NCBI GenBank assembly: GCA_051294905.1
Contig: CM119371.1
Coordinates: 2,234,001 to 2,298,000 of the forward strand
Length of the DNA: 64,000 nt
Origin: Botryllus schlosseri
Taxonomy: Eukaryota
Direction of reading: 5' to 3'
Under the pieces are notes generated by a model. It searched no databases and was not told the origin of the DNA. It was given only the letters and a program-made list of their open reading frames with translations. Below, in pieces: positions 15,301-56,950 of this stretch (within the stretch, counting starts at the first letter, position 1; every line of letters starts with the position of its first letter). The position numbers were made by a program, and so were the translations under genes.

Positions 15301-15994
15301 GAGTTCATTAGTTACTGAATTGATTCAGAAATTTGGAACGAATTTCCTGCATCGTGTCATGACAGAGCTGATAACCTACTTTGGACTTGGCATGCATCAA
15401 GATTCAGAATACTGCAATTCTTGTGTCATACTGTGTAAAAGTTGCCCACCCCACAACTGGTACAAGAATATTTACATGTGAAACCCAAACCTGCGACCAA
15501 GTCGCAAGGTTCCAAGTCACAAGTCCAATAAACTGTTAGGCTAAAACTTCGGCTCAAGTCAAGTCAAATCATTTTCAATTCACCACCGAATCAAGACCAA
15601 CTGCACGTGAGGGAGCAATGCGCCGAGCCTGAGTCATTGTGTTAAGACTTGAGTCGAAGTGAGTCATTTTGCGTTAAGAAAATAACTTGACTCAAGTTGT
15701 GCTGAACGAAAAATTGTGGCTCGAGTCATTACAACCCTGCTAAAACCTAACTTGTTAACCTGACTTGTTAAAAAATTGTTGTTTTTACTGTACTATTTGG
15801 AGACCACCGAGAGTATGATTAAGTCCAGCCCACAACAAGGTTGCAATACCAAAGTCAGAGACAAGGCGCTAATTTTCGTTTGTATATTCCTATAATGTTG
15901 AATTGCATAAAATCTGGAGGCAGTTTCATGCTATCGTGAAGAATGGGGGTATTAATTGTGAGGGATATATAGAGCAGACAACAAGATGGATAAA

Positions 15995-25014: not shown

Positions 25015-25242
25015 CTAAGATACAATGCAACCAAATAATGACTCACATTCTATAACTTCCAACTCAGTATCGAGATCATTTGCAATCTTCCGGATTTTCT
25101 TCAATTCGTTTCCTTTCAACATAGCTTTTTCCCACCGGTATATCAATGTAACTTTCTTCAAATTTGAGTTGTTGACGAGAGACGAAATCTCATCGAGTGA
25201 AGGACGATATACTTCTTCGAATATGCATCTGATATATTCGAT
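25015..25242 (-). CDS. Terminal exon of the NLR-like gene, ending in a CaaX box
   Basis: Acceptor ttgtcaccgcag, phase 0; IEYIRCIFEEVYRPSLDEISSLVNNSNLKKVTLIY...ELEVIECESLFGCIVS*. Confidence 0.65.
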   Translation of the reverse strand: MEYIRCIFEEVYRPSLDEISSLVNNSNLKKVTLIYRWEKAMLKGNELKKIRKIANDLDTELEVIECESLFGCIVS

Positions 25243-28200: not shown

Positions 28201-31200
28201 TTCAACCAACTATACAAACTTGGAATATATTTACCAATTTTTCCGGATTTTACTCCTGTATTGTAAGTCTGAAATTTTTTTAAAAGGTGTCCTCTTTTCA
28301 GACTCCCAAAATATGGTAGCCCTAATTGACACTCACTTCAGAGAAGGCAAAAAAGTGCTCAGTGAGTTCACAGTTTTATGGAAAAACGGACCACAAAGTA
28401 TAGTTATCTGCGGAAGTGGATAATATAATTGTGACACCAAAATATAATTGAAATATCTGTGGTCGCACTCCTTTTGCGCTTATGACTCAACATCTCCTTG
28501 GCTGCCGGAGAAACCCGAATCATGCAATGGTGAACCAAATTTCAACGTCTACGTTTACGGTTAAATGGCTTGTATTCCTCACAACGCATAGACAGGACTA
28601 TATTGTCAGATTCTGACTAAAACAAAGCTATCATAGCAATATGCCAACATGTATCGTCGGTAAAGCCGCTGTTTTAGCAATTTAAGAAACTATTTAACCG
28701 GCCAATCATCGTAATTTCGCCAAGTCGGTGGTTTGCGAATAAAGGTATTGATGGAATAGAACCAGATGGCCAGTGATATAACGTAATTATTATAATGCGT
28801 ATAAGTTTTATAATTGAGTATTCAAATGAAAAGAAAGGGTATGGATTTAGAGGAAATATTTTGGAATCATTTGACTGGTCCGGCGCGCGAGTGCTCTGAA
28901 AGTTTGACTCTGACCCGTGATGCCAGTTGAGTTTGACACCCCTGCTTTATATGAACAAATTGCCAGGGATCACGAAGTCCGCAACTGCGGTGGATATCTT
29001 GGTCATGGAATATAAGTTAATTCATGTGGAGGAGACTCGTACTGTGCAGCAGAATGCAATGATAAACGTGCGATGGTGGGAGAAGAACGTTCAATATATC
29101 CAATGCAACTAATACTGGATAAGTACTACCTTCTTTTGCTGACAAGCTTCTAACGTCTTCCTGAATTCATCTGCTTTCTCAACGTAAAACATGGCATGGA
29201 TATGAAGGGGAACCGAAATTGCTCTCCCGCGCTCCAAAATTAGTTTGTAATCGTCGACGGGTATCTGGCCATTCACGGCAATATCCACGAAATCCAACTA
29301 AAATGCGGAATTTTTTTTTCAGACTTGAAGATAGCCACGGAAGAGATCATTGGGTCCGAAGTCACATAAAATGATAGGTAAATATAAATGCGTTTGGAAA
29401 TACTTTATGAATCGAATCAGGAATCGTACTTGATACTTTTTCCAGCAAGTCTCAATCATCGACCAGTCGATGTTTTCTTCTGTGCAATCGAGCACGATCT
29501 TGCTTATCTGAACACAATATTGGTTTCATTAGGTAAGATTACTTGATTGCTACGATATATTCCCATTTGAATATTTATTTATATAGTTTCAGTGCAATAG
29601 CGATTAGTATGAATTCTACGATTCTCCATAATTCATATACTACATCGGTTTTAGTCTCATCCAAGAACATGCTCTTTTAAAAATCTACTTATGAATATGA
29701 TATGCATTGTACAAACGGATGATATAGAATCTGGTGGTCAAAGTAGTCATCGTTTGTGGTCAAGCAGAAGTAACGCCTTTAATTTCTACTCAAGTAGAGG
29801 TAGAAGAATCAAAATGCATGTAGTAAAAAAGTGAGCACTCAAGGCCTAGTTTTGACTGAAAAATGAAAACCGCAAATAGAGTTGAAAGTATTCTAAAATC
29901 ATAACCACTTGAGTAAGTAGTTAAGTAGGAAAAATATACTTGAATTACTACGACAAGTAGAATTACTTTGTTACTGATCACTAGGGCAATTTTTTTTTGA
30001 CATGTCAAAAAAAAAGTCAAAATTAGGTCAAAATTTGTCAAAATTGTTTACAAAGTCAAACATTTTTTGACCTCTGTATTTCGTTTGTATCGTAGATTTT
30101 GCGCTGTCCGTGAACTTATCATTTGATATTTTACAGCTTGTAGCCTACTTTATAGGCCTACCGTTGTAAACGGACCATCGTCTGCTCATTGTGAATCATA
30201 AATGGTCAAATGAAACAAATAGTGACATGGTTTTATGGTCAACGTACCGCAATATCCTTGCTGAAGCAAGACTGCTTGGACATTGCATGGTTCTTATATC
30301 AAGAAGCGCAAGCTGAAAAATTGTGATATACACAACATTGTCAGAATGAAGCAACACGGTTTGTCATCAGCAGTGTGCACACAACTTGAGTGTTGTCAGC
30401 CAACAAATGCTGCTGTTGAACGTTCTTTCTCCGTTCTTGGCAAGCTACGTAGTAAGGACAGACACTTTCTACCCGAGAATGTAGGAAAGGATCTTTCGTT
30501 GTACTACAACAAATTTTAATTATTTCCACCAGAATACGTAATGTAACTACTGGAACTCTTCATAGGGCCAGATTTCGTTAAAATACTAGTTTTTCATGTA
30601 AAAATCTGTCAGTTTTTGAGTCAAAAACATTTTTTTCAGGCCAATCTACTTTGTAAGGACAGACTGTTCCAACCAGAAATGAAGATAAGTAGTACAATTT
30701 TAACATTATATGCGAAAACACCTAATTTGCATACGTGAGGTAAAAATTTGGTCAAATTTCAGTGTTTTTAGGTCAAAAAAGGTCAAAATTTAGATTTTTT
30801 AGGTCAAAATCTTCCGTTTTTTAGGTCAAAAAAAAATTGCCCTACTGATCACTTCTGGATATAGGTTGTAAGGAACTCTTGCTATGTAACGTGGTCACTC
30901 ATGTTTACCCGAAGTTACTTATATGCTTGGCACGGAGAAGCATACCTTATTTGAATTGTTAACTGTCAGCTTTCTAAAACCATTATTTGTAGCATGCATT
31001 GTTGATTTACACCTCTGACAACGCCACTGCTTGAGCGTACAATTTCACTTATAAAATAGATGAAAACTTATCCGTGAAGTACGATTTACTTTTCAGAATC
31101 AAAATTTATGAAAACTTAACACAAACTACTGTCTCCGTATCAGAATACAAAATACAACAAGCAATTAGTATTGTAAAATAGGGTTAACATATTATGGAAT

Positions 31201-34200
31201 CGGGTAAAAACGGTAAACTTTTTCCACTTCTTAGTCGGTTGACTATAAAAAAGGTCAACTTTCGCTCAGCTCACGGAATACCCGCCTGACAGTTAGTTCA
31301 GTGTTATTTTAGGGTATCTCGGTCGAATTTTGCCCTGTGTTTCAGCAAAATTCTGAAAAAAGAGGACAAAATCTCAAAAAGGAGGACATTTAGGCGTCCT
31401 CAGAGGACATTTACAAGACCCAGAAAAAGGAGGATAAGTCCTCATAAAAGAGGACGTATGGTAGCCCTATATATGTAAAAGAACTGCTCAAGTAGAATTG
31501 GAAGTAGTCAAAACATTGCCGCTTGAGTAAGTAGCAGAAGTAGGCCAAATTTTGAAGAAGTACTGGTACTGTTTTGCTAACCACATCTATTAACGAGTCA
31601 CTTACATATTTCCAGAGTACATGGTAATTATGACAATTTCACTCATAATTTTAATAGAAACTGACGAACTGCTTAATGCTTTTCAGAATGCAAATTGTAA
31701 CCAGTAAGTAGACTTGCCAAAAAAATGCTCAAGTCGAAACGGAAAGACGACCACTTGCGTAAGTACTTAAAGTATGAAAACTTTATTAACCCCATCCACC
31801 AAAAGACTGCTTTTCAGAGTACAAAACAGGTTATGCCTACTTACATTACTAGCCCAATTGGTTTAGATTTTAAGCTACTTCCATTTCTACTCGAACAGAA
31901 CAGCTCTTTCACAAATGCACGCTTTTCACGCATTAGATTTCTAAAAGCAGAAATTTAAAAGTAGCCACCACTGATAAAAACATCAACTAAAAATACTTTT
32001 GAAAACTTTTTACCTGAGTAATTTCAAGGACTTACAATTTCTATTTTGAACATGTGTTTTAAGAGCTAACTTTACTTGGAATTGTGTATAAATTCTGTGT
32101 ATATTTCTTGAGTTTTATCATCGATTTTTTGAATATGGAAATTATCATCCAGTCGAGTTTGCTCGTTTCGAGATTGTAGAAAATCGAATCTTTTGTTAAT
32201 TTTTTTTCTGTTACGTGTTCTAGGTTCCAGATTATGGCTTTTGCATAATCGCACTCTAGTAATATGTGTACTAGGTTATCTGTACATTTTTGGCAAAATT
32301 TACATTTCAGGTTAAGGAGTTTCCCGGTTTTATCCCGAAGCATGTTCTTTTGCCTTCTTCCGTCTCCAAAAATATAAGCGTTATGCGCTACTTTGTAGTT
32401 GATGGTCCTTTCTTCATTTTTGATGATATTTTTCCCGCCGAATTTTGAGGCCATTATTTTGCTCCATTTTATCTCGCCCCCTTTCTCCGATCTTATCTGG
32501 GTCGGCCTTTCTTTCAGATTTTTGATGGATTTGTACAGGGTGGTGTGAGTCGCCGTGTCCCAGTCTTCTTCGGTCATTTTTAGTTTTTCCACCACTTCGA
32601 GTTGCTCGACCCATTTCTGGGGGGTGTGGAACTTATGCGGTTCCGTGTTTTTATATAATTTCGGGTTGATCTTTTTAACCTTTGTGCCTAGCTCGTAGAT
32701 CGCTTGTTGGTGCCACGGTTCTATTGGCTTGTCCAGGAGTTTTAGTGCGAGGAGTTGTTCTGTCTGGCATGCCTTGACTCTGCTTTCCACGTCTGGGACG
32801 GCTATGCCGCCACTCTCCTTTCTGGCGATCAATGTCTTCCTGGCAATTGTTTCGATTTTCTCTGGGTGCCAGAGGAAGTTGAAGTAGAGTTTTGTGGCCT
32901 CATGCTGCGCTTCTTTTGGCATCGGTATGATTCTCGCATTATAGATGATTTGCGTGGAAGCTAGTGAGTTTAGGATATTTTTTTTCCCGAGCCAAGTGAG
33001 GTTTCGGTCTCTGTATCCGTAGAGGGTTCGTCTTATTTTTGCTAATTTTTCTTCCCATGTTCGCTGAGTTTGGTTTTCACCGTAGTATTGCCCCAGTATT
33101 TTTATTTCTGATTGTTTGAGATTCTCCAGATCAGATTTTTGATATTTGTGTTCTTTTCCTGGGTTAATGTGTAAGATTTCTGTTTTTGCCTCATTCAATT
33201 TTTGACCGGTCGCACGTTCGTATTTGCTAAACTCTCGCAGTATTCGTTTCACATCCCCCTCACTTCTCACAAGGCACGTCATATCGTCTGCATATTGTTG
33301 CAGTTTGATCTCGATTTTTCCGATATGATGGCCTTTTATCGCTTCATCTAGTTGAATTTTCCTCGCGATTGGGTCACAGCTTATGGCGTACAAGATCATA
33401 CTTAGTGGGCATCCCTGTCGGATCCCTCTCTCTATTTGGATTTCGTCTGTTAATGCCCCGTTTACTATGATTTTGCTTTTCGCGGTGTTGTATATATTTT
33501 GTATTAGGCGGACAAGGTGTGTTGGGAGTTCATATGTTCTGAGGATCTCGTACAGGAACCTGTGATGGATCATGTCGAATGCCTTCTGTTGGTCAAGGTT
33601 AACAATATATAGCTCTTTCTTTTTCTCATTTGCTGAGTCTATTGCAGCTTGGATGTTTCTCAATGCATCTGTTATTTGCCGGCCTTTGACAGCGCACTTC
33701 TGCGTTTCCAGTATCAGGTCCGGAAGTATCGGCCTAATTCTGTTGGCTAGTACCCCTGTTAGAATTTTATAGTCGCAGTTAAGCAACGTGATGGGTCGCC
33801 AGTTTTTTAGAAGTTCAGGTCTCCCTTTCTTGTATATTAATGTGGTAGCGCCAGCTTTCCATGTCTCACAGAGTCCGCCGAATAGGTAAGCGTTGTTAAG
33901 CAGCGCATGCATATCGCTCTTGATGGTGTTCCAGAAGGTTAGATAGAATTCTTTCGATAGTCCATCGGGTCCTGGTGTTTTATCGCTATGCATGCCTTTC
34001 AGAGTATTTAGTATCTCTATTTCCTCTATCTGGCAGTTCAAGTCCTCTTTCTGTTCTTCTGTTATTTTTTGGTCTTGAATAACTCTTATGTATTCATCTT
34101 GTAGCTCTGTGTTTTCGGTTTTTGATTTCCCCCACAGGCCTTGATAGTAGTCACCAACCTCTCGGAGTATTTCTGGTTCGGTTGTGAGATTTTGTCCTTG

Positions 34201-37200
34201 ATCGTTTTGGACGGCCGATATATTTTTGCTCTCTTTCCTTTGTTGTATCTTTTGGAAGAAATATTTTGTCGGCCTTTCATTTTCCTCCATGTCTTGGAGT
34301 TTGAAGATTTTGCAGAGGTGTCTGGTGTTGTCGTCCTCTAGGTTTTTTAGATCTTGGATGAGGTGATAGGCTCGCTCATCATTGTTGTCTTTGTTTTGTA
34401 TGTCTAGTATTCTTCGTTGTAGCCTTTTGATGTTATTTTCTTCGGCTATTCTTTTTTGGGCTCTGTGTTTGATCAGATGTGCCCTCACTTGGTTTTTAAA
34501 GTGGTCCCACCACTGATATATGTCGTCGAATTTCGACTTGTTTTGATCACACCTTTTGTGTATTCGTTTTATCTCTTCTTGGAGCTTGTTGTCCGCGTAG
34601 TCCCTGACATCGTTCTTCCAGTGTCCTTTACCCCATTTAATTTGGCCAGGTTTTCGTAAGTTTATAGTCTGCAGGAATGTGTGATCAGCGATCGTATTCA
34701 GTTTGTACACACACTTTTGGACTCTGGCGAGAAGGTCTTCCGATACGTATATACGGTCTACTCGTCTCGATTGCTTTGCCTTGATTGTTGTGTACAGACG
34801 TTTATGTGGATTGCGCCATCTCCAGACGTCTCGTAGTTTGTATGTCTCGCAATATCGCTTCCAAATTTTCGCGGCTGGCATCATCTTAAAGTTGGCGTTG
34901 TATTTGGCATCAATCGGGTCTTGGATTATGTTGAAATCCCCGCAAACTACGTTATTACTTGGATTTGTAGATAGCTCTTCTGTTAATTGCCTAAATATAT
35001 CGGTTTGAACTTTCCCGACATCGGGCGGTCCGTATACGTTAAGCACATGGGTGCTTTGCCCGGTTTGTTTATCAGTTAGGATTATCGTTTGTATCCTGTG
35101 TTCTCTGATAATCCTGCCTTTTATATCGTATTGGTTTTCTAGTTTCTTTTTAACGAAGATGCCTGTTCCCTTAAAGTACAATTTTTTCTTTTCTTCCTTA
35201 TCGATCCAGTTTGCGTCTATATCGATGTGGTTTGGGTAGTATATCATTTGGTTTTGTTTTGCCCATTTGCTTATTTTGTTTATGTATGCTCTGTGCGTTT
35301 CTTGCACACATAAGACGTCCCAGTTCTTTTCTAGCGTGAGATATCTCTTAAGCTTGTACCAATGGGCATTTAGCCCATTGGCATTCAAGGAAATAATATT
35401 CAAGGCCATTTTTACGGGGATAAAAGGAACATCTGTTGCGCTGGTTAGCCTATTTTATTTTTTTGGTTTTTCGGGGTTTGCGGATCTTTTTTTAATCCTA
35501 TTCCCCGGTTTTGCTTCTTGTGGGCTACGTTCGTGCAGCTTCCTCTTGATGGGGGAGCAGGTAAGGTGGACCAGCTCTCGACCGGTCATCACCATGGTTG
35601 GCTTCTCAAAGATTTTGCACTGCTCTCCGGTGTATGCTGAGCCTTTGGGTTTGTCTTGTTTGGTTGCAGTTTGTTCATTCACTATTTGAAAGAGGTCCTC
35701 TGGTTCCGATTCAGTTTCTTCTGCTACGCTAGAGTCCGACTCTAGCATGCCTTCATTTATTTTTTCACGTATATCTTCCTGTTTATCTGATTGGTCGCGT
35801 TGTGTTTCGTTTGTTTGCTCGTGTTGTAGGCCTACCTCTGGTGAGCGAGCTGGACTGCTGTGTGCTCCTTCTAATTGTTGTGACAGTGTTTCTGTTTTGT
35901 CAATTACTTCTTGTTCTTGTTTATCTTCGTTATTTCTTTCTGTGTCTTCTTGCATTTGAACTATTGTAGTTTCTCCTGAAGTTTCTGCGCTATTTTCCCC
36001 TGTCTCAAGTTCTTTAACGGCATTGTGTTGCGGGCAGTGTTCTTTTACATGCCCATACTGTTTGCATGCAAAGCATGCAGTTTGATTTGGACAGTTCTTT
36101 GCTGTGTGGCCTATTTGAAGGCATCTGAAGCATTTCGTATGATCCTCCCCTGGTGGGTGGAAGACCTTACAGGGTGCTTCTCCAAGAGTTACAAAGGCTG
36201 GTATTTGTCCTGGGATATAGTCTTCGATATCCACCTGTCTAAATCCGTTATGGATTCTGGTGCCGCTGTGGTAGATCATTCTGATAGCGACGATGTTACC
36301 GCACTTGTATAGCCTGAGTTTGTCGACTACCTCTTGTTGCTCTACTTCTGAAGGGACGGCTCGTATGCTTATACGAGCTGTCGGAGGTCTCGGCTTCTCT
36401 ATTAGTAAGTTCCCATGTACTGAAGGAATGCCTTTTGCGCCTATCTCTAGGAGGGTTGGTATGAGAATGTCTATCGGCGAATCTTTGTACAGTGTGAGGT
36501 TGTAAGTGTTCCACCCGATCTGGTAAATTGAGAAGATATATTCTCTGTATAACTTCAGTTCTGGATGCTTTATTATTGCGTCCAATACCTCGCTTGTTTT
36601 GGTGCCGTGCGGCGTTATTATATCTAGAGATCTAGGTCTATGACCGTAGATTATTCTCTCAGTGTTGGTAGCCGCTTGGCTGTGGTTTACGGCATTGGCG
36701 TAGGCCATTTGCGAGCGGTTGCAACTCGTTCGTACTGCTTAAGGCACTCTTTGTAAAGCCGATACTGCGGTTGCAGCTGGTTTGCTAGACGCAGACACTA
36801 GGTAATTAGGGGCGTCTAGACTGAAGAGAAGGTCTTACGATACACAAGAGAGATTTGTGTCGTAGACAAGAAAGAGTGGCTTGACTCAAGATAGAGCCAA
36901 GTCTCTAAAGGAAAGACTCAACAAGTCCTGACTCACACGGTCGAGTCAGGACCTGAAGAGAAAAGACTCCAACGAGAGTTGACTCAAGAAGACGAGTCAA
37001 GCTCTCGCAGAGGTAGGTACAGACTCCTACGAGACCTGACTCGGGAAGGGGAGTCAAGTCTCGAGGAGGGAGAAGGTTTGAGTCTGAAGAAGGCTCGAAG
37101 TTGAAAAGGAAATCCAACGACGACGAAATGAGAGAGTGAGGAGTAGGTTAACCTAAGAAAAAATTATACCAACTAACTATTACGGTTACTCTAAGCGGCT

Positions 37201-43200: not shown

Positions 43201-46200
43201 GAAACTATTTTCAGAATTACTTACTTGAGTACTTTTCCGATCTTTGGTTTGCTACTTCCACTTGAAGTAGTTATACAAGACTTGTAAGCAGTTGATTGTA
43301 CTTGTGATTGCACATTAGGGGCGTTCAATCTTACAGGTTACTTGATAAAATTGTTACGTTACCTAATTAAAGGCTGAACACCAAATGTGGTTCAATTTTA
43401 ACCAGTAGCCGCATTGCTACAAGAGAAGAAAGTTTTGTATTTATTATGTAAAAATATATAAAACAACGAAAATTTTCTGTTCACCCCATCATATTGCTAG
43501 GTTTTGTGCAAAAACGTTGGTCAGCAAATTTGGCTCATTTCCAACCAGTGGAAACGGAGTTATTGCAGTTGAAATATTTGGATTTGAATAAAATAGTATT
43601 TACGGTGGCTAGGTTATCATTTAATTCATATGCAGCCATCCTTCATGGGATTTTGAAAAGTAGAAAGTAGTTTTATGACACGTTTGAATCACTTTGATTT
43701 ATGAAATCGTCATAGGAAATCGAAATCGCCATCAACGTAACTGTTGAATCTACTTTTCAAGATTGTTGCAACTAATGACGCTACTAATAATTTCGCGTTA
43801 GTCGCAGAGACTCTTCTTGCAATTTCGAAAAGTGACCACATCCGATGGACTGCCAAATATTCGCTAATTCTACCTGTAATAGGGTACAAATTTACACCAA
43901 CCCTTCGACTTTGACTCGATTAGCCTAGGCTGACTACTTGGACCACTTGTGCGTGCATTCGAGTCTCGGCTAAAAATATTTGAGACGCAAATTCAGCAGA
44001 CATTGGGAATAAAAGTTTTAAGTTGAAACATGCGTCTTACTGCACTGCGCATTCTCTCTCGTCACTAAAATATCAAATTCAATATCTTATCCGCCTTTCG
44101 TATTAATTGGTCCTATTAACACGAAGGAATTAGTAAAACACCATATTCCGCACTACTTGCATTGCGACAGATGAATTATGATAAATTCAAGCGCGCACAA
44201 AAATGCGTTCCGTTACTTATTTTTGTTGGATATTCAGATATTGATTGCTTGATTACCAACTGGCAGGTAGGGTACAGATGAAAGTAGAAGAAAATCAAAC
44301 AGTGGAATCGGTCAAGAATGAATCAACATTGACCTTTACAGCAAACTTAAAACTATATAAATTGTATAAGAAAAATAACTGTAACCAACCTTTTCTATTC
44401 TATACTCTGATATCTTCCGCAAACCAACCTCTTGGGCGACCAGTTTTTCAATCAATTTGACAAATGTTGCATCGAAAAGGTCGCCGACATATTTCAATGC
44501 TACCGCGGAAACCGTTTTGAAAGATAGACTGGAATCCTGTGAAAATAAAGTGTTGTCAACTACGTCACAATCATCCAACAACAACCCTAAGATATACGTC
44601 CAAGCATGAGACATGAATCATGACTACTGCGGACAAGGCGATGGGATCGCGTTATCAAAACATATCTTGCGAAAAGAGCAGACTGAATTTGCCTGCATGA
44701 ACCACGAATCCGCTACATGAATTATATTGACCTAGACATTCGTGGAAATATATTACTCCCTTCACATCTATTTTGCTCGAAGCATAGCAAGGACCCTCCC
44801 CAAAAACAGCTCTTCATCTTGGTCCCTCTCTCTCTCTCTCCCTCGCTCGCTCGCTCTCTCTCTCTCTTATTGGAAGCACGTAATACTTTGTTTCATTGTA
44901 TTGCAATCGTGTAGTTATATGAATTAAATAAATTTGAATATAATATAATTTTATATATTTGAATTGAGAAAAATTAATTATTTAATTCCAACCCGCACTC
45001 ATCTCACTGGTAGGCACGATAATGATGGTGCCAAGTACCGCTTACTGCCACAATAGCGTTTTACATAAATCAAAGCAAAAATGCTTCCAGAATATACCTT
45101 GAACGCCCCCGCCACCACCACATAATATTTCGGTGAACAGTTCAGAATATTTAAAAAATATTGCTTGTCTGTTGAAAATTGTGATAAAATAACCGTAATC
45201 CTTCGATTTTTAATGGATGTAATCGAAAATCCTGAATGTACTTGAAAATCAAAGTACAGTGCCGAATTTTTTTTCTAAATTCAGTGGGCAAAAATCTCGT
45301 TACTTAGAAAATCATCACAAGCTGCAAGCTTACTATTCTTAACAAAAGCATATCGTCCTCATGACGCTCATAATGACGTCATAAGCTACAGACTGGCTAT
45401 ACTAGACCTCAAAGTCATCGCTTCGTGTGCCAAGTGTTGTTTACAGCTTGATGCATAGTAAAGTCGCTAAAATGACTGCAATTTCAGTCCAATCATTAGT
45501 ATGGACTCGTTATCGAAGGTGAATCAACTTGATATCCAACCTTGAAGTCAAGGTGACCTTCAATCCCGTCACCACTTATCTTGATGACATCTTTTTCGTT
45601 CTTCAATTCAACATCCCCTCCATCTACAGTCAGATTGACCACCTGAATATTGTTCACATATGAAACTTGAGATCGTGCATTGTATCGCTATTCCACCAAA
45701 TATCTTGACGTCATATCACACATATAGTGACGACCGCAGCATCATCGATCATCATCTGCTATACGTTATCGACACGGGTCACTGATTTTACTGTCGTTTA
45801 TGCTGGTGGTGGCCTTTTGCGACAATTGCGACCCGATATCCCCGAAAACACTCATTTATATGAGATAAGAAGTATATTGGCGGAATCAGTTATTTTGGTC
45901 AATATAGTTGATCGTAAGCACCCGGAACCGTTTTCCTGCATTGACACGAATTCACGAACGATTTTTATCTTTTTAATCGGAGCGCAAAATTGGACAGTTT
46001 GCTATTGTGAGCATGTACTTCAAAATACCATGAACATCATAGTGACTGCCATAATACAAGGGAAACAAAACATTGCAGTCCAAAACGCTGTTATAATTAG
46101 ATCTGGGCACAATAATTCGAGTGTTCGAATCTGAATCGAGTATTAATTTTAATGATTCAAGTCAAGAAGTAAAATATGATTTTTAGGAGTAGGCCTACCG

Positions 46201-49200
46201 AAATCATGCGTTCGTCGACACTGAAAGTTACTTATTAACGAGAATTTCAGTTTTGACAGTATTTCCCAGTTTGTAAGCCCTGAAATCATGATTGGTCGCA
46301 TAGCAGCATATGAAACATATTGTACAAAGCTATGAACGTTACTGGAATAACATATTTCCAAAGTCAGGATCATCCCAACAACAATGTCACAAACCGCAAT
46401 GAAATCGGTATGTTCTGAAAATCCCGAAGTATCTTTTATGTGATGCATAACAACAGGCATTATATAATTTGTGGTGGCATAAAAGCTTAGTACGTGATTC
46501 AGAATCGAATCACTCAAATACTCGATCCTGCCTAGCCCTATAGTTATGAACAGTAGGCAATTTCGCTATGCGATGTCAAACTGATTGTGTTGGCCTGAAA
46601 ATCAGATACGCACTTTGTTGATTAGGAGTAGTAATATTCAGCTGCGCACTAATTTATGTCGACATGCACACTCCTGAATTTTGACGATGCTAGCAATTTT
46701 ACTTGTTAATCACGCAGTGCATTCTGCAGCGGAACACGGCGTTTGATTACGTGAATGTGACGTAATTTGTCAAAATATCGATGCACAATTTGATCACCGC
46801 CAGACTGATCGATCACACCAATATGGAATTTTACTACACTGCATTCATTTGATTCATTGTCAATTTACTAGAGAGCGGATTTTTGTTGACGAGGTCGTGA
46901 CATTAGATCAGTGGTCTTATTGCTGCCCTACGCTCCATAGTTAACTATTTCAGTAAATTGGATTACATAGCTCGATATTAATGAGACAGTGCGGATATTA
47001 AAACATCATATCAGTGGGTAAATACTGTACATCTTTGGAATGAATGCAGAGTAGGGCCGCTCAAAAAATGTTTTCTTCAGATTCCACTGGCTATGTGATA
47101 AAATTGATAGGTTGGTTAAAACGACGCTATAAACCAAATTTGGCTTCAAGTCCAACCAGTAGAAGCGAGATACTTGCTATAGAAAGTTTTGAAATTATCA
47201 TTAAAAGACACACAAATAAACCAAAATTTCCTGTCAACCGCATAAAATTGTTAGGCTATCAGTAGAGATGATGCATACCAAATTTGGCTAAATTCCAACC
47301 ACTAGAAGCGAAGTTATTGCAGTAGAAAATTATAGTGGCTTGTTAGTACGCAACTGAATCATAGAATCGATCTCACTTCCCAATCTAATTTTCGAGATAG
47401 CGATTCAATCCGAAGATGTCCGAGAAGTGAACGCAATGCTTTAGCTGAGAAATTATTGCGACGCAAATCCACTTTCTTCACCTGAATGATGAATGAAATA
47501 TGAATACAATGTCTGCCAATATCATGTCAAACGAACAGAGCTTTGCACAGACGTATTCAGGGCATATTTTGGAAGCTCAGTATGTTCAACATTATTGTGA
47601 TCCGCATAATAAAGGCAAACGACCGTATAGGTTTAGAGCAATGATGGGCAAACTACGGCCCGCGGGCCGCATACGGCCTGCCACACCGTTCTGTGCGGCC
47701 CGCGAGAGTCTAAAGCAGGGCTGGCCAACCTTTTCAGCTAACGGGCCACATTCGATTGACGGATTATCGCGCGGGCGACTAGCCGCGCGCAGCGCAAAAC
47801 TTTTTTGAAGTTCATAGGCCAATAATATTGTCATTTGACTATATTGCGGGCCTGTTGTACATCGCTGGGCTAGTTTTGCGAGGACAGGGCTATTCAGCGC
47901 ATGGACATATCGATATCGAAAGATGCGACCAACATGCAGCAATCATTTCGTGCCTAGGTTTCATAGGCGACGGTCTTACTGCGAGCGCAACCGCAATGTC
48001 GCATATGTTGAACGACACTTTGTCTCGTAATCGCAAATATAGTTGGACTCAATCTGATACATTAGGTGTTCTTCCATTTCCACATAGGGCAACAATATTA
48101 AAAACAAGAAATCGAGTGACAACATGTTGCGCCAAGCTTGTAGAAAATTTTTACCTTTGATAAATCTACCGCAAATTATTCTGCTTTATTGTAGTGAACG
48201 AAGATATACCAATATGTGAATGGCTGATGGATCTGTCAATGCGTCGGAACTGATATTTTAGTCATCTCATCTCAAGTGTTGCGGCCAGATTAATCAAATA
48301 ATTGGTTGGTCTTGCAAGTTCACAATCTGTGCAATCCAATTTTGATGATATTAGAAATTTCGGAAATGACCTCGCGGGCCACTCAAAACCTTCTCTGGCC
48401 GGCCCTGGTCTAAAGAAACTTTTTAAAAATATTGATGAAATGCATACTAAAAATCGAATTAATGCAGAGACTTGATTATATTTCACCATGATATTTTTAA
48501 GGAAGTGGTTCTCAAACTGGTGGGCGCCCACCCTGAGGGGGTGAAAGCATCTTAAGAAGGGCACGAAGCTGAGATCAACTGAAAAAAAAATTCGCGATCC
48601 GCGCGATTTACATCCAATTCACGGTTGATGTGCTGTATTTCATAGCGTTCGTCGTAGCGTTCCATGCCATGAAACTACCCGTTAGGTTTGCTAGCATTCT
48701 GGTTGCGTTTTGTGATATGACGATAAAGGGGATACGTAATCATTCACCATCGTAAGGGGGCAAAGTATGGTCTCTTGCATCGTTTGAAAACCTCTATTCT
48801 AAGGTATATACTTCCTACATTATTTTTTATGTTTAATGTCTGGCGCGTCAGACCGATAATAAAGCTCACGCGGTTTGAAGGGTTCAAACTAAAAATCACA
48901 GAAATCCTTAACGAGATCGACGTAATTCGGGTCACGAGTGTGATTTCAGATTGGCCACTCCAGTTTCAATTTTTTCAGTGATGTTTTTATAAAAAAACGA
49001 TTCGCGCTTGTCTTAGGTAGATTCGTTCTCTGTATGCGTAGAATTAGGGTATTATATTTTATCGACACACAGTAGAAGCGTGTTTGAAGCTAACATGGTT
49101 ATGATGCTGTCAGCATTGTGCATCCAGGAACTGAACCAAAAGTGGAATTAACAAATCTATGAACCGATCGCTGCTGACAGATTTAAATTTTATTCCTATT

Positions 49201-52200: not shown

Positions 52201-55200
52201 AGTTCCGATATCTGTTTCGCAGTGCTATGTCAGTTTGGGGTCAAACGGTCCCTGGTCCCCAAACCAAATTCCAACGTCTTCGTTTAGCCTAGCAGTGGTT
52301 CCCAACCTTTTTCGACCCATCGATCTCTTTTCAAGCTCAACACCGATCATCGCCCCCCAAATTTTGTGTACCAAAAAATTGCCATACAAACTGTAATCAC
52401 CGGCGGGTTGACTGCAGTAATAAAAAAAAGAGGTCAACTTTTTAGCTCGATGTCGAATTTGACAATTTTGCTGCTTCATAACAAAGTAGTACATTGGAAA
52501 AATAGGGCATTGGATTTGAGGTAACATTTTGGAAGAATTTGACTGGTCCAGCCAACGAGCTACCTGTAGGTTTGAATCCAGCCTGCGACGCCAGTTGAGT
52601 TTGACCACTCTGATTTCAATCCTACTCTCATATCAAGACTCCAGCATTAAATAGGAAATATGTCTGAAGATGGGAAAACTAGTATCCGATGCACGATGCG
52701 ATTTTAGTTGACGAATAGGCTAACCTGCTTTTTTCTCCTGTGACCTATATAGTCCACCGCTGGCATACACTCTAATTATAGTGGACGGCCTTGAATTCGC
52801 ATGTTGATTATACGGTCCTTAGACATGGCACCCGCTCGAGCCGGACATGCGACTTTAATAGCCTATACCTACCGAGCGACATATCAATTCTAGTGTGTTA
52901 TGCTTGAACTCACTTGTATCCCTTTTTCCAGACTCCCGGCAATGATCGCCAAAAGATCATCATTAATGTTGCAGTTGTGTAAATTCAAGCAATCCAGACT
53001 TTCACTCTTTACTGCAAGCGATCCGACGATATGAGCCTCATCGCGACTCAGTGAGATCTTGGATGCATCGATATCGGAAATTCGTCTCATAAGAGCGTCG
53101 TCTCCTGATTCATAGATTGCTGTATACAGTTCCATGCGAGCTTGCTTGTCCTCCTTGCTCTTGAGTTGCGAACGTATCGATCCACCAAGAATTTGTTTTT
53201 TCAGCGACTGATTTGAGACTGTCAATCAAATAATGCACCTCACTATATCATATTACAATCGAGTAAAGAGATATAACAGTTTTCACAGAGGCACATCCAA
53301 GTGGTATAAGGGAAGGCATATTTGCTCACAAATGTACGCCTGTTTTCACAACGACATAATGAATCCATGAAGTATGTCATTGTTGTAAGATATAGAACCT
53401 AATGTTGTACCGTTCAAATTTCCAATTGCCTGTCACAGATCTTTCGGCTGCCTATGCGACTTTATGTACGCAGTCCGACAGAAAATGAAACAGTTCTGAT
53501 TGGATTGATCTCTTACTGCATTGTGACAATAGTGCGACAGAGCATAAATGCAATAAGCTCGTTTCATACGTGCCCACCATACTGTCAAGCGTTAGAAATT
53601 GATTTTCTACATTTAAATCCATCGAAATTGCAACTTCGCAAAATTTATAATTATAACCACTATCGAATGTAAACATAGAATGGCCACGAACAAATGGCTA
53701 ATTATGTCGAGCGATTGTTCGGAACAATGAACGGTCACGCTTAGTAACCCGGACTCAAAGCCTAAGACTTGGCTAACATTTAAATTACTCCGATACTTGA
53801 AATATGACAAGACCAAACTCGCTCTTAGAGACGGATAATTCACAGCCTTGTGTTTAATGGGAGTTTTCTTATGTATTCATATCTTATCATAAGATTTTGC
53901 AAGTAGCTTGTAATCGTCTTTCGTCGTTATGTAGCTGGCAAATGGATGACGGCAATCCAGGATGCGATGTGGCGGGGGAGATAATGTAGTGGTTTATCTG
54001 GGGTCCTCTTCCCCTGCCGTTGCCGTTCTTACGGTGACAAAAAAGCGCAGAAAAAGACCCGACGAAGAAAGCACTCACAAGGAATGGAAAGAACTAATAG
54101 AAAGGGCCGCGGCATCCAAAAAAAACATCGAAAAGAACTGACATCGGGCACTCTAGGCCGAGGAGGATGTTAGAGTAAAGGCTCGTTACTGATGCGTGTC
54201 GCTCGACATCCTCCTATCTGTTCATGATATCGCATTATGTCTTATCACATTGTGTGTGACTAGATCAGATGAAGAATATAACCCAACGATGCTATGTTAT
54301 CTAACCATTAGGCCTATCAGTGCTGTCGGGGGGAAATGTCAGGCATCAATGTCAGTTTGTTAAAAGAGATATGTAGTATACTGCTAATCGTTACTGATGC
54401 GTGTCGCTCGACATCCTCCTATCTGTTCATGATACCGCAATATGTCTTATCACATTGTGTGTGACTAGATCAGATGAAGAATATAACCCAACGATACTTT
54501 GTTATCCAACCATTAGGCCTATCAGTGCTGTCGGGGGGAAATGTCAGGCATCAATGTCAGTTTGATAAAAGAGATATGTAGTATACTGCTAAAAAAATAG
54601 GAAGATCTGGCATAGTGTCAGTGAAAATATCACTGTAATATAATTCTGTTTTGTGGGTTTCGCAATTTAGAAATGACCAATACGCTTTACTGCATCCTAT
54701 CCGCCCTGAAATTGAAGCGATAATGTTCTCAGTAAACGTATTCATGAATTAAATATCATACTACTGCAGTGAATCAAGCGAATGCATCGGGATAAATATA
54801 GCCTACTACGGTAACATACGTTTCATACCTCTTTGTTTTACAGCTTCCAGGGTCTTGAAAGTAGCGGGAATACGATCATGAAAAACTATATTCTCCGACG
54901 AGACTCACCTTCATAAAGATTATCCGGTGTTTCATCATAAATGAGGCCGCACACGAATCTGCGGACGACCGACCATCGCTCTTTGTGCAAGTGTATAGAG
55001 TTGAAGCTAATGAACTTTGTAAGCGTCATTTTGACAATAAATCCCGCTGCGAGGAATTCCTGGAGACTTTGATGGCAGAAGAAGAAAATGAAACTGCCAT
55101 CCAACACTTTACAACTAAGGAGCTTATTTCCTGGAACCTTCATCATGAGATCTCGAACTTCTTCTTTTGAAAGTCCAAACTTATTCAAATGATTTTCTGA

Positions 55201-56379
55201 GAATGTCACTCTCCCTTCTTTCATGCCACGATATGCCATCCCTTTCAATTTATTGATGACTCCGGCGATAGCATCAGCTTGAGTAATATTGTTCACGCTG
55301 CTTAGATTGGATATAATTTTTTTGTACAGTCCTGTGACCGTCTTAGGGGGAGGTTTGTCCGGATTCTTGGCCATGATCACTGCGGTTAAGACCAGAAAAA
55401 CGGGAATGGAAACTAAATTGATCAGCCTTGGTGACATCGTTTCTATCTTCTTCCATGCTTCATCCCCATGTCGACGTAACAAAAGCACAAAAAGTGTCTT
55501 TGCGTCATCCAGAGTCAAACCAGAAAGTGTGATGATGTCGGCGGGTCGGGCTTTCACCGGTAAATCCGAGACTTGGAATTCTCGGGAAGAGAAGACAATC
55601 TTTGTATCAGCGAGTATATTACGTGAGAGGATGTTGTACATGATCGTTTTTGCTTTGGCTTTACTATAAGGATTTATGTCCTCGTCACCATCTCTGTTGA
55701 TTTTCCAAGTAGCCTGATCCAAGCCGTCGAAAAATAAAACTGCTTCTGATTGATGTTCGAGCAACCACCAATACGCATTATCCTCGTCGATCTCGTTCTG
55801 AAAGAGGCCATCGAAAAGAAATTTAGATGGTTTGATGAGTCCTTTATGTTGCATGCCTTTTATTTCTATATAACGTATCAATTTGTACTTGAGCTGAGAA
55901 GGGCTTGCAATGGTTTCTGTATTCGTAAGTGAATCGCCTACAGCTTTTCTAGCGATTCTACGCATGAGAGTGGTTTTCCCAGATCCCGCAGACGCCACAA
56001 TGGCGGTGATAGAACTTTTCTCGTTGATGAATTGTTCCAAAACTTTATCTAGCTCGATGAATTTGTTGTCGTCAACGTTTTGTCGTAGGAATCCAAACTC
56101 TTTTCTGAACTCATTTTTCACCACCTCTTCCTTTTTCCAGAAGAATAATTTTCTTTTCACTGCGACTTCCATTCCGTGCACCTCTTCATAATTGCCTTTG
56201 AAATATTCCGACTTAGTAACCCATCTCATCTGGGGATGTACTTGGAAATCAGGCTTGCTGAGGTCGTCGGCGCCGATGTCTTCGAGAATTTTGTCCGCCG
56301 TTTTTTGGTATGCATTGTCGTTTATGCATTTTATCAGGGCTGAAGCTTTTTCTGGAAGGTAACAATATTCTTTCTTCAT
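25015..56379 (-). CDS. NLR-like gene (NACHT NTPase, divergent LRR region, C-terminal CaaX); predicted exons 56351(or ATG 56379)-54909, 53218-52914, 47481-47377, 45642-45541, 44536-44390, 40484-40383, 39286-39188, 38291-38145, 29507-29430, 29297-29130, 25242-25015
   Basis: Every junction is GT-AG and phase-compatible (phase 1 after the NACHT exon, then all phase 0), giving one stop-free frame; several exons begin with an LRR-like beta-strand. 5' exons not identified; additional internal exons cannot be excluded. Confidence 0.7.
27525..28018 (-). mobile_element. Non-autonomous hAT element
   Basis: TIR TAGAGGTCGACCGAT, exact 8-bp TSD GTTCATAG on both sides; minus-strand remnant EHAEKICFLHYNL resembles a hAT transposase C-terminus. 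Confidence 0.9.
29130..29297 (-). CDS. NLR-like gene exon (phase 0-0, 168 nt)
   Basis: cattttag|LDFVDIAVNGQIPVDDYKLILERG...EACQQKK|gtagta. Confidence 0.65.
29430..29507 (-). CDS. NLR-like gene exon (phase 0-0, 78 nt)
   Basis: tgtgttcag|ISKIVLDCTEENIDWSMIETCWKKYQ|gtacga. Confidence 0.6.
29982..30844 (+). mobile_element. Deleted hAT element retaining a dimerisation-domain remnant
   Basis: TIR TAGGGCAATTTTTTTTTGAC, exact 8-bp TSD CTGATCAC; internal QPTNAAVERSFSVLGKLRSKDR; GGTCAAAA subterminal repeats. Confidence 0.9.
32059..35409 (-). CDS. LINE ORF2: APE endonuclease, reverse transcriptase, Cys/His finger
   Basis: ISLNANGL, VQETH, NVYGP, GDFN, RVDRIY, ADH; KTPGPDG, NWRPITLLN, DQQKAFD, GIRQGCPLS, QYADD; CKFC...HILLEC; 1116 aa uninterrupted. 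Confidence 0.95.
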   Translation of the reverse strand: MALNIISLNANGLNAHWYKLKRYLTLEKNWDVLCVQETHRAYINKISKWAKQNQMIYYPNHIDIDANWIDKEEKKKLYFKGTGIFVKKKLENQYDIKGRIIREHRIQTIILTDKQTGQSTHVLNVYGPPDVGKVQTDIFRQLTEELSTNPSNNVVCGDFNIIQDPIDAKYNANFKMMPAAKIWKRYCETYKLRDVWRWRNPHKRLYTTIKAKQSRRVDRIYVSEDLLARVQKCVYKLNTIADHTFLQTINLRKPGQIKWGKGHWKNDVRDYADNKLQEEIKRIHKRCDQNKSKFDDIYQWWDHFKNQVRAHLIKHRAQKRIAEENNIKRLQRRILDIQNKDNNDERAYHLIQDLKNLEDDNTRHLCKIFKLQDMEENERPTKYFFQKIQQRKESKNISAVQNDQGQNLTTEPEILREVGDYYQGLWGKSKTENTELQDEYIRVIQDQKITEEQKEDLNCQIEEIEILNTLKGMHSDKTPGPDGLSKEFYLTFWNTIKSDMHALLNNAYLFGGLCETWKAGATTLIYKKGRPELLKNWRPITLLNCDYKILTGVLANRIRPILPDLILETQKCAVKGRQITDALRNIQAAIDSANEKKKELYIVNLDQQKAFDMIHHRFLYEILRTYELPTHLVRLIQNIYNTAKSKIIVNGALTDEIQIERGIRQGCPLSMILYAISCDPIARKIQLDEAIKGHHIGKIEIKLQQYADDMTCLVRSEGDVKRILREFSKYERATGQKLNEAKTEILHINPGKEHKYQKSDLENLKQSEIKILGQYYGENQTQRTWEEKLAKIRRTLYGYRDRNLTWLGKKNILNSLASTQIIYNARIIPMPKEAQHEATKLYFNFLWHPEKIETIARKTLIARKESGGIAVPDVESRVKACQTEQLLALKLLDKPIEPWHQQAIYELGTKVKKINPKLYKNTEPHKFHTPQKWVEQLEVVEKLKMTEEDWDTATHTTLYKSIKNLKERPTQIRSEKGGEIKWSKIMASKFGGKNIIKNEERTINYKVAHNAYIFGDGRRQKNMLRDKTGKLLNLKCKFCQKCTDNLVHILLECDYAKAIIWNLEHVTEKKLTKDSIFYNLETSKLDWMIISIFKKSMIKLKKYTQNLYTIPSKVSS
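35455..36708 (-). CDS. LINE ORF1, gag-like with two CCHC zinc knuckles
   Basis: CFRCLQIGHTAKNC and CFACKQYGHVKEHC preceded by NGFRQV, followed by an acidic low-complexity tail; typical of Tx1-type ORF1. Confidence 0.92.
   Translation of the reverse strand: MAYANAVNHSQAATNTERIIYGHRPRSLDIITPHGTKTSEVLDAIIKHPELKLYREYIFSIYQIGWNTYNLTLYKDSPIDILIPTLLEIGAKGIPSVHGNLLIEKPRPPTARISIRAVPSEVEQQEVVDKLRLYKCGNIVAIRMIYHSGTRIHNGFRQVDIEDYIPGQIPAFVTLGEAPCKVFHPPGEDHTKCFRCLQIGHTAKNCPNQTACFACKQYGHVKEHCPQHNAVKELETGENSAETSGETTIVQMQEDTERNNEDKQEQEVIDKTETLSQQLEGAHSSPARSPEVGLQHEQTNETQRDQSDKQEDIREKINEGMLESDSSVAEETESEPEDLFQIVNEQTATKQDKPKGSAYTGEQCKIFEKPTMVMTGRELVHLTCSPIKRKLHERSPQEAKPGNRIKKRSANPEKPKK
38145..38291 (-). CDS. 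NLR-like gene exon, module A exon 3 (147 nt)
   Basis: tttattttcacag|DSSLSFKTVSAVALKYVGDLFDATFVKLIEKLVAQEVGLRKISEYRIEK|gttggt. Confidence 0.6.
39188..39286 (-). CDS. NLR-like gene exon, module A exon 2 (99 nt)
   Basis: atattcag|VVKLSVDGRNVELKNEEDVIKISGGMEGHFDIK|gttgga; differs from its paralogue by several synonymous changes and a 3-nt indel. Confidence 0.7.
40383..40484 (-). CDS. NLR-like gene exon, module A exon 1, LRR (102 nt)
   Basis: cgttccag|LKEVDLRGNVSATALRSLLGHRRIGSLSGKLDWE|gtgaga; LxxLxLxxN LRR motif. Confidence 0.75.
41035..41514 (-). mobile_element. Shorter inverted relative of the 29982-30844 hAT element
   Basis: TAGGGAGATTTTTT...AAAAAATCGCCCTA termini; about 41180-41430 matches the reverse complement of about 30060-30345. 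Confidence 0.8.
44390..44536 (-). CDS. NLR-like gene exon, module B exon 3 (147 nt)
   Basis: Identical in sequence and splice sites to 38145-38291. Confidence 0.6.
45541..45642 (-). CDS. NLR-like gene exon, module B exon 2 (102 nt)
   Basis: atattcag|VVNLTVDGGDVELKNEKDVIKISGDGIEGHLDFK|gttgga. Confidence 0.7.
47377..47481 (-). CDS. NLR-like gene exon, module B exon 1, LRR (105 nt)
   Basis: catcattcag|VKKVDLRRNNFSAKALRSLLGHLRIESLSRKLDWE|gtgaga. Confidence 0.75.
50718..51594. mobile_element. hAT-type MITE with GACTCGAGTC subterminal arrays
   Basis: CAGGGTTCTA...TACAACTCTA termini with exact 8-bp TSD ATTGTAGT (50710-50717, 51595-51602); related arrays at about 9780-10400, 15490-15740, 17160-17345, 17605-19960 and 42790-42983. 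Confidence 0.85.
51047..51360 (+). mobile_element. tRNA-derived SINE with a Meta-like central domain
   Basis: A-box-like TAGCGTAATGT, B box GGTTCGAATCC (51101-51111), then AAAGAC...GGTATCCATGGCTTCCCTGCTTGGCGCTCATGCATTA, resembling the MetaSINE core as I recall it; 3' end approximate. Confidence 0.8.
52914..53218 (-). CDS. NLR-like gene exon (end of HD2 and first LRR; phase 1-0, 305 nt)
   Basis: ttgattgacag|(V)SNQSLKKQ...MELYTAIYESGD...SLDCLNLHNCNINDDLLAIIAGSLEKGIQ|gtgagt; RI-like LRR. Confidence 0.85.
54183..54591. repeat. Two-copy tandem repeat, unit about 205 bp
   Basis: 54183-54387 and 54388-54591 differ by only a few bases; part of the unit also occurs inverted at about 8600-8685. Confidence 0.9.
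54909..56379 (-). CDS. NACHT-domain exon of the NLR-like gene
   Basis: Walker A IVASAGSGKTT, Walker B VLFFDGLDQ, sensor-1 VFSSRE, ITLSGL, SIPVF, winged-helix FCHQSLQEFLAA, HD2 RWSVVRRFVCGL; donor G|gtgagt at 54909; probable acceptor ttaccttccag at 56351. Confidence 0.93.
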
Positions 56380-56950
56380 AATATTTTATGAATAGAAATG
56401 ATCGGACAAAAGCTATTACCTTTGTTTGGTAATATTTTATATAACCTAGAGCCCAGGTATTAAAGAAAGATGTGGAGATATAGGCTATATTGTGAATATT
56501 GCAGAATTCAGTTCGGTAAGCCCGGTACCCTAAATTTACCAAGATATCAATTCATTAGGGTTGAGTACAGCATCGTAAATGCCGATAATGCAAGTCTATT
56601 CGTTTGTACGAACTTACGCGTAAGCTCCTCTCTCGCACCCATTCTCGGTATTGGTATAAAACCCCGCGGCCCTAGTCTGCCGAGATTCCCCACTACTTGC
56701 TCACTACGTCAAATTTTAGTGGCTGTTTGTTATTATCTGCGTGTGCGCAGCGTGCGAGAGTGGAGCTTACGCGTAAATAGAAGCGAGAAGACTTCCATTA
56801 TCGGCATTTACGGTTCTATACCATTACCGGTACCGAGAACGGCCAATGCCAGGAATCTAACATACTGAGAAGGCGTTGTCGAGAATTTATATCTGAGAAT
56901 GGACACCGAATTTGGCAAAGCCGTCATGCACATGCACATGACCTGTATAT

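Follow-up and report, generated by a model that had tools for sequence, protein, structure and literature searches.

Can a receptor of the nucleotide-binding, leucine-rich-repeat (NLR) kind be tethered to a membrane by a lipid on its C-terminus? The question is raised by a minus-strand gene of the ascidian Botryllus schlosseri, located in a stretch of 64,000 nt (assembly GCA_051294905.1, contig CM119371.1, positions 2,234,001 to 2,298,000; hereafter the window), whose joined frame runs from a NACHT domain to a terminal CIVS, a candidate prenylation signal of the CaaX type (Cys-aliphatic-aliphatic-X). A preliminary description, made from the letters of this DNA, had interpreted the gene as a lipid-anchored NLR with its sensor end on the membrane. 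The present analysis leaves hardly any doubt that the gene is real. The locus is probably an intact, transcribed, lineage-specific member of an expanded ascidian family of NACHT-repeat (NLR-like) proteins, in which the CaaX tail is an unconserved add-on that cannot be counted among the established features of the receptor. Observed directly were the NACHT domain, the open frame across nine exons and two splice junctions.

The gene model consists of nine exons separated by eight introns, all of them GT-AG, and the exons join into a frame of 2751 nt (916 amino acids) with a single stop (TAG at 25017-25015; Table 1). The start ATG at 56379 stands directly after an in-frame TAA, the single stop directly follows ...ELEVIECESLFGCIVS, and the 916-residue frame closes with ...VIECESLFGCIVS. 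Exon 1 ends in phase 1, exon 2 passes from phase 1 to phase 0, and exons 3-9 are all phase 0-0. One open frame from the NACHT domain to the CIVS stop, as given in the preliminary description, was thus reproduced, and a NACHT-type gene spread across 31 kb with transposon-rich introns was also recovered. Its count of 11 GT-AG exons was not: the open frame is obtained with nine, the candidates for two further exons were poor, being mostly transposon open reading frames (ORFs) or low-scoring sites, and none was adopted. No convincing additional phase-0 exon was found between the nine exons of the model, and when the C-terminal half of the model was searched by tblastn against the entire window, no further repeat exons appeared below 25018.

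The NACHT domain (PF05729) was identified by Pfam in the minus-strand ORF 56385..54889 with a score of 50.2 bits against a curated cut-off of 26.7 (E 3.4e-13, residues 130-299), in agreement with the preliminary description. Walker A motifs are defined as GxxxxGK[ST] and Walker B as an acidic motif, and both ASAGSGKTT and a Walker B-like LFFDGLDQ are readable in the exon-1 translation. Further along exon 1, the winged-helix family NOD2_WH scores 22.6 bits, just below its cut-off of 23.1, and the helical family NLRC4_HD2 16.8 bits against a cut-off of 33.1, and the region following the NTPase is colinear with NLR-like proteins of Styela. No Pfam match to an N-terminal effector domain (CARD, PYD, TIR, Death) was found in residues 1-110 of exon 1, and none was found in the 29 minus-strand ORFs of at least 45 residues within 7.6 kb upstream. 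The likeness to leucine-rich repeats (LRRs) that had been read in the C-terminal half is one of pattern only. No Pfam LRR family matches any of exons 2-9 at E<=10, an hhalign comparison of the window repeats with the Styela repeat region gave a probability of 0.9% (E 0.061, exon 3), and an LxxLDLxxNxxS-like pattern can be picked out by eye in exons 3 and 5 only. Given the lack of LRR and effector-domain matches, "NLR-like" is the correct label, on the grounds of the NACHT module and of homology.

The homology is clearest with Styela clava, whose NLR-like proteins share 33-35% identity with exon 1 across 93-95% of the exon (about 450 residues; tblastn 4e-79). Exon 2 is the only other exon with significant Styela homology (tblastn 8e-12 to 2e-9, phmmer 8e-15) when the C-terminal halves of the Styela proteins are searched by phmmer against all 385 minus-strand ORFs of the window. 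Taken together, the NACHT, winged-helix and helical module and the first post-NACHT segment are colinear at 31-34% identity over about 575-595 residues (E 1e-89 to 1e-102), and the lengths are comparable (919-1341 residues against 916 here). The Styela proteins differ in three respects: they carry N-terminal extensions of 130-350 residues that are lacking here; their RI-type repeats of about 57 residues match Pfam LRR_6 in one case, whereas the window repeats match no LRR model; and they end in ...ADTGVEF plus 2-5 variable residues, with no CaaX. NACHT and TIR-NACHT proteins of Clavelina lepadiformis share 26-29% identity with exon 1. In an exhaustive HMMER search, 404 relatives passed E<=1e-3 and 71 of them passed E<=1e-30; the best of them shares 50% identity. 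The closest NACHT relatives (50-64% identity; P0018, P0036, P0084 and others) are ORFs on short Logan/ENA contigs of 626-5707 nt, and what lies past the NACHT-exon match at their ends looks like intron, so that these ORFs are uninformative on C-termini. Several of the Clavelina TIR-NACHT proteins (P0006, P0007, P0008, P0011) have a C-terminal cysteine (...RNHC, ...RKHC, ...THLC).

Transcription was assessed on positions 22501-42500, with exons 1-4 lying outside, using two sets of Logan contigs (X11 and X1, accepted at 95% identity or more) and raw RNA reads from two runs (X22 and X23). The listing of joints used below holds 15; a further 8 joints, 264 loose ends and as many as 2249 contig pieces fall outside it. 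The joint 25242/29130 (CT..AC on the plus strand, GT..AG on the minus strand) is spanned by one contig in each set, at depth 30.6 in X11 and 23.4 in X1, which bears out the junction proposed in the preliminary description. The joint 29297/29430 (GT..AG on the minus strand) is carried by two X11 contigs at depth 213.4 and in X1 at depth 27.7. Exon 9 is therefore spliced to exon 8 in both sets, and the last exon is part of the NLR-like transcript; the alternative that it belongs to another gene, named in the preliminary description as a refutation, did not materialise. The second proposed junction, 38145/29507, stands in part. An X1 contig spanning 29430..29509 fits the acceptor at 29507, and the joint itself is not among the 15 listed. 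Contigs are expected to break there because the two B-type exons of the repeat region are nearly identical. Contigs over exons 7-9 show no listed differences from the window.

Two further observations concern depth and coverage. The joint of exons 7 and 8 is seven times as deep in X11 as that of exons 8 and 9 (213 over two contigs, against 30.6), whereas the two are about equal in X1 (27.7 and 23.4); paralogues with the same exons 7 and 8, two alleles, or the joining of exon 8 to another acceptor could produce such a gap. X11 also covers 39843-40509, in the intron after exon 5, at an exon-like depth of 22.1, and a contig at 40346-40369, just beyond the donor 40383, shows a single insertion and a single substitution. 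An in-frame reading past that donor stays open for 51 codons (...VRSILGFSCVLTAAIILCGLRRL...) before a stop. The coverage may come from a retained intron, from a truncated alternative isoform or from a paralogue.

Could a paralogue or a processed retrocopy be the source of the spliced contigs, the window copy being silent or decaying? Such an origin would accommodate the X11 contig that links a B-type exon end to exon 5 (40461 downward) with 24 differing letters at the join, a contig that is probably from a paralogue or the other haplotype, and it would also accommodate the sevenfold depth gap in X11. With about 6% and 13% of their reads sampled, the raw RNA runs X22 and X23 leave exons 6-9 uncovered, a result in keeping with a silent copy and, at this sampling, uninformative on expression. 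However, a nine-exon frame that is open over 916 residues, with every intron GT-AG, is not what a decaying copy leads one to expect; contigs of at least 95% identity without listed differences in exons 7-9 point to the window copy itself; and unique intron bins in X11 are nearly empty (depth 0.13-3.3), as for RNA. An origin in a paralogue or retrocopy is accordingly regarded as extremely unlikely, and the reading of the locus as an intact, transcribed gene is kept.

The tail itself satisfies the textbook description. Farnesyltransferase recognises a cysteine at position -4 followed by two aliphatic residues and a final S, M, Q, A or C. The frame of the gene ends in ...DLDTELEVIECESLFGCIVS, with CIVS before the stop and a second cysteine six residues upstream of the first CIVS residue (-10), and the preliminary description was right that this end, a Cys-aliphatic-aliphatic-Ser with an upstream cysteine close by, fits the rule. 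If the tail is made and exposed, its farnesylation is biochemically likely. The frequency of such ends was estimated over all six frames of the window: a cysteine at -4 precedes 185 of 5457 stops (3.4%), and a strict C-[AVILM]-[AVILM]-[SMQACLF] precedes 11 of 5457 (0.2%), the CIVS of this gene counted. A second CIVS before a stop occurs in a non-coding frame (plus strand, frame 2, near nt 15350), direct evidence that this DNA can yield the exact motif by chance.

Conservation was then compared among relatives. The preliminary description had proposed the -4 cysteine in paralogues and orthologues as a check, and it is not conserved in any relative compared: it is present in none of 13 Styela-type proteins and in 4 of 165 relatives overall (2.4%; P0012, P0040, P0137, P0140), which is the chance level when set against 3.4% in random frames, and in 2 of the 65 relatives of at least 800 residues. 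A profile of 75 columns built from the C-termini of the 13 Styela-type proteins aligns, at its positions 34-73, colinearly with residues 54-97 of the 110-residue exon-9 ORF (domain 3.1 bits). The whole exon-9 peptide scores 4.8 bits, a value equalled or exceeded by 6 of 485 scored shuffles (p about 0.01 in a single-target test); against all 385 minus-strand ORFs, exon 9 is indistinguishable from noise (E 1.1). This weak match would place the family C-terminus at ...ELEVI and leave the last 11 residues as an extra, so that the tail may extend about 11 residues beyond the point where the family proteins end. No relative of exon 9 was found in searches of 5.8 billion proteins that covered lengths of 41-2000 residues. 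Three metagenome loci returned for exon 9 were set aside as chance: they are bacterial sugar-kinase-like ORFs of 466-502 residues that have only the word EYIRCIFE in common with it.

The position of the tail adds a second difficulty. It starts exactly at a GTGAGT donor-like site and may therefore be intron read in frame. The minus strand of the window has 3478 GT sites, of which 19 score at least 8 of 9; exons 1 and 2 use two of these 19 as their donors. The site at 25047 is the only one of this quality inside the 2751-nt coding sequence; at a background of 0.3 per kb, one would fall within the final 35 nt with a probability of about 1%. Introns 1 and 2, when read in frame, reach a stop after 7-8 codons and yield the short "tails" GESRRRI and VSSSITH, which means that an unrecognised donor would give the same picture as the CaaX tail.

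The 3' end of the transcript and the status of the tail have to be inferred, and two versions of the add-on reading follow. In one, the mRNA reads through the site and the tail is a young, fortuitous and unselected extension, possibly modified by farnesyltransferase. The mean X11 depth over 24502-25168 (28.2), close to that of the contig at the exon 8-9 junction (30.6), is expected if the transcript continues for more than 500 nt past 25047. A donor at 25047 would moreover leave phase 1 within a run of phase-0 exons, and the 15 listed joints, some as shallow as depth 8, include none from 25047, although this absence is weak evidence. These points suggest read-through, and we hold this first version as a tentative but serious possibility. 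In the other version, splicing does use the GTGAGT at 25047 as a donor, so that what looks like a tail is in-frame intron and the real C-terminus is encoded elsewhere, as suggested by the donor score, by the in-frame tails of introns 1 and 2, and by a 1.36-kb stretch after the stop that contains neither AATAAA nor ATTAAA; this version is possible, on the doubtful side. Downstream of the stop, the region 23800-24700 (minus strand) is rich in short AAGTAG/ACTACTT-like motifs, and a similar string stands among the letters between an X1 contig joint at 23071. These may be subterminal repeats of a transposon, which would complicate reading the stretch as a 3' untranslated region.

Several points weigh against the reading of a transcribed gene with an unconserved add-on and should be set beside the evidence for it. 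The relatives compared are all distant (no more than 50% identical in the NACHT exon, whereas exon 9 has no relative), so that true orthologues and paralogues are outside the comparison. A strict CaaX arises by chance at only 0.2% of stops, and CIVS is of textbook quality with a cysteine nearby, so that coincidence is not a cheap explanation for one gene taken alone. The argument from read-through depth is soft in view of depths of 213 and 30.6 at neighbouring joints and of 22 on the intron stretch 39843-40509. The kind of run behind X11 and X1 is not recorded, and that they derive from RNA is inferred from their spliced joints and near-empty intron bins. A Clavelina isoform ending in CRCCLLQ, finally, means that lipid tails on ascidian NLRs may occur. 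This protein, annotated as "NLRP3-like isoform X2" (XP_076802100.1; P0137), ends in ...SSSIDDEEPISNICRCCLLQ, where an acidic linker is followed by three cysteines and by CLLQ, a CaaX-like end; its sister isoform X1 (XP_076802099.1; P0166), from the same gene, ends in ...SSLLELD. Isoform X2 may represent an independent, isoform-specific lipid tail. It resembles the window gene in being an ascidian NACHT-LRR model with a cysteine-rich CaaX-like end (...NICRCCLLQ) and differs from it in several ways: identity in the NACHT region is 27%, its tail, which shows no sequence relationship, comes after a long acidic linker of Ser, Asp and Glu, the sister isoform X1 lacks a tail, and the protein is a computational model only.

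What would a working anchor look like in such a receptor? By membership of its family, the NACHT module may act as a STAND ATPase, which the diverged C-terminal repeats would hold closed until a ligand or an altered-self signal led to nucleotide exchange and oligomerisation of the module. In an anchored form under selection, Cys-107 of the exon-9 frame (-4) would be farnesylated and processed by the usual CaaX protease and methyltransferase, the cysteine at -10 perhaps palmitoylated, and the repeat end placed on endomembranes or the plasma membrane. The fit of CIVS and its upstream cysteine to the rule, the splicing of exon 9 into an NLR-like transcript, the rarity of strict CaaX ends before stops, an X11 depth compatible with read-through of the 25047 site and the CRCCLLQ end of the Clavelina isoform all speak for it, as does the occurrence of CaaX tails on other innate sensors, OAS1 p46 (PMC10854198) and GBPs (PMC9005921). 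On the other side stand the chance-level occurrence of the -4 cysteine among relatives, a tail that is extra to the family end and starts on a strong donor-like site, the lack of a usual poly(A) signal nearby, and the fact that the motif was singled out post hoc from a very large scan. The chemistry of the tail is unfavourable too: the tail and the stretch leading into it carry acidic residues (D, E, E, E, E) and lack a polybasic patch. In anchors of the Ras type, a lone farnesyl binds membranes weakly unless a polybasic patch or a second signal assists it. By analogy, only weak membrane binding would be expected here unless the cysteine at -10 were acylated. We thus consider a selected, farnesyl-anchored NLR unlikely; the preliminary description's lipid-anchored receptor is given up as the leading interpretation in favour of the add-on.

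Known lipid-anchored proteins offer instructive parallels. H-Ras (CVLS) and yeast Ras2 (CIIS) share with the window gene a Cys-aliphatic-aliphatic-Ser end and upstream cysteine(s) as a second signal; in those proteins, however, the tail follows a flexible hypervariable linker and is kept among orthologues, whereas the tail here is 11 residues long, acidic and unconserved. NOD1 and NOD2 associate with membranes via S-acylation. The same is reported of NLRP3 (PMC11392533, in excerpt), and the likeness to these receptors is that of an NLR brought to membranes through a covalently attached lipid, putative here; in those receptors an acyl group is attached reversibly, by a thioester, to internal cysteines, in contrast to the irreversible isoprenoid that a CaaX box would put on the C-terminus, at the repeat end. 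CaaX-bearing innate proteins include GBP1/2/5 (PMC9005921) and human OAS1, in which the CaaX is exclusive to the p46 isoform (PMC10854198). As proposed for the candidate here, they are cytosolic immune proteins sent to membranes by a C-terminal CaaX, but they have dynamin-like GTPase and nucleotidyltransferase folds, respectively, as against a STAND ATPase, and their prenylation has been demonstrated experimentally, whereas here it is putative. In the excerpted text of a review of post-translational modification of inflammasomes, prenylation acts only indirectly, through small GTPases (PMC9253692). No natural CaaX-bearing NLR was found in full-text literature searches and review passages. To that extent the suggestion that the architecture may be undescribed stands; the annotated Clavelina isoform ending in ...CRCCLLQ detracts from it.

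The isoform-specific CaaX of OAS1 also resembles a possible splice choice at 25047. As with human p42 and p46 (PMC10854198), use of the donor would yield a soluble protein with another end and read-through the CaaX form, which would suit both the strong donor-like site at the very start of the tail and the X11 depth suggestive of read-through. However, no joint or loose end at 25047 appears among those listed (8 joints and 264 loose ends fall beyond them), and no candidate downstream exon was found, the tblastn search having detected nothing below 25018. A switch of this kind is considered very unlikely. More broadly, the idea that at least one isoform keeps the tail, is farnesylated at CIVS and perhaps palmitoylated six residues upstream, and thereby carries its repeat end on a membrane, with use or skipping of 25047 switching between a soluble and an anchored receptor, is drawn by analogy and would be a surprise. 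The unconserved add-on accordingly remains the preferred reading.

Apart from the tail, the repeat region records a recent change. A tandem segmental duplication has doubled a pair of exons, one of type A and one of type B (exons 3 and 4, 5 and 6); self-blastn of the duplicated segments gave 95.3% identity over 1544 nt, 83.8% over 961 nt and 83.1% over 177 nt. Both B-type exons code for an identical 49-residue peptide, which indicates that the expansion of the repeat region is recent.

Table 1. Coordinates of the gene, its tail and associated features in the window (strand dot, no strand assigned)
Feature	Position	Strand	Description
Exon 1	54909..56379	-	No recognised domain in first 110 residues; NACHT NTPase, winged-helix and helical regions follow; donor AAG/GTGAGT, 9/9
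Exon 2	52914..53218	-	Post-NACHT linker and first repeat; donor CAA/GTGAGT, 8/9
Exon 3	47377..47481	-	Type A1, 35 residues, VKKVDLRRNNFSAKALRSLL...; most LRR-like unit; paralogous to exon 5; GT-AG; no read evidence (outside mapped stretch)
Exon 4	44390..44536	-	Type B1, 49 residues; peptide identical to exon 6; within segment duplicated at 95% DNA identity; GT-AG
Exon 5	40383..40484	-	Type A2, 34 residues; GT-AG
Exon 6	38145..38291	-	Type B2, 49 residues; donor AAG/GTTGGT at 38145; X11 contig depth 23.3
Exon 7	29430..29507	-	26 residues; covered by X1 contig; exon 7-8 joint in X11 and X1
Exon 8	29130..29297	-	56 residues; spliced X11 and X1 contigs carry both flanking joints
Exon 9, as read to first stop	25015..25242	-	75 residues and TAG, end ...DTELEVIECESLFGCIVS; acceptor joint 25242 in contigs
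Tail CESLFGCIVS	25018..25047	-	Candidate CaaX box CIVS and second Cys at -10; direct reading; not shared by any relative compared
Donor-like site AAT/GTGAGT	25039..25050	-	Last exon base would be 25047, phase 1; score 8/9; CaaX tail begins here
Tandem segmental duplication	37259-40502 vs 43503-47501	.	Doubled A+B exon pair (exons 3+4, 5+6)
LINE (long interspersed nuclear element) in intron 6	32059..36738	-	Not part of gene; ORF1 427 residues, CCHC zinc knuckle; ORF2 1131 residues, endonuclease PF03372 and reverse transcriptase PF00078, no stops

The window is transposon-filled, with a G+C content of about 40%. The LINE in intron 6 is apparently intact. Outside the gene, a reverse-transcriptase ORF of 539 residues at 21075-22694 (minus strand; RVT_1 2.9e-13), the C-terminal part of which looks GIY-YIG-like by eye, is possibly Penelope-like, and a piggyBac-type transposase (DDE_Tnp_1_7) is broken into two ORFs at 18092-19593 (minus strand). 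Intron 1 contains a 205-bp tandem duplicate with 97% identity between its copies (54183-54387 and 54388-54592).

As it stands, the locus provides a well-supported model of an ascidian NLR gene that has diverged and has recently doubled a pair of its exons, and a cautionary case of an in-frame "C-terminal motif" that begins exactly on a donor-like GTGAGT. If the tail is real and used, the gene would be the first natural NLR found with a CaaX anchor, within the literature searched and the passages of it available. The sensor end of the receptor, and not its signalling end, would then lie on the membrane, adding to the evidence that the location of NLRs controls their activation. Together with the CRCCLLQ isoform of Clavelina, such a tail would suggest that prenylated NLRs are a recurrent ascidian invention.

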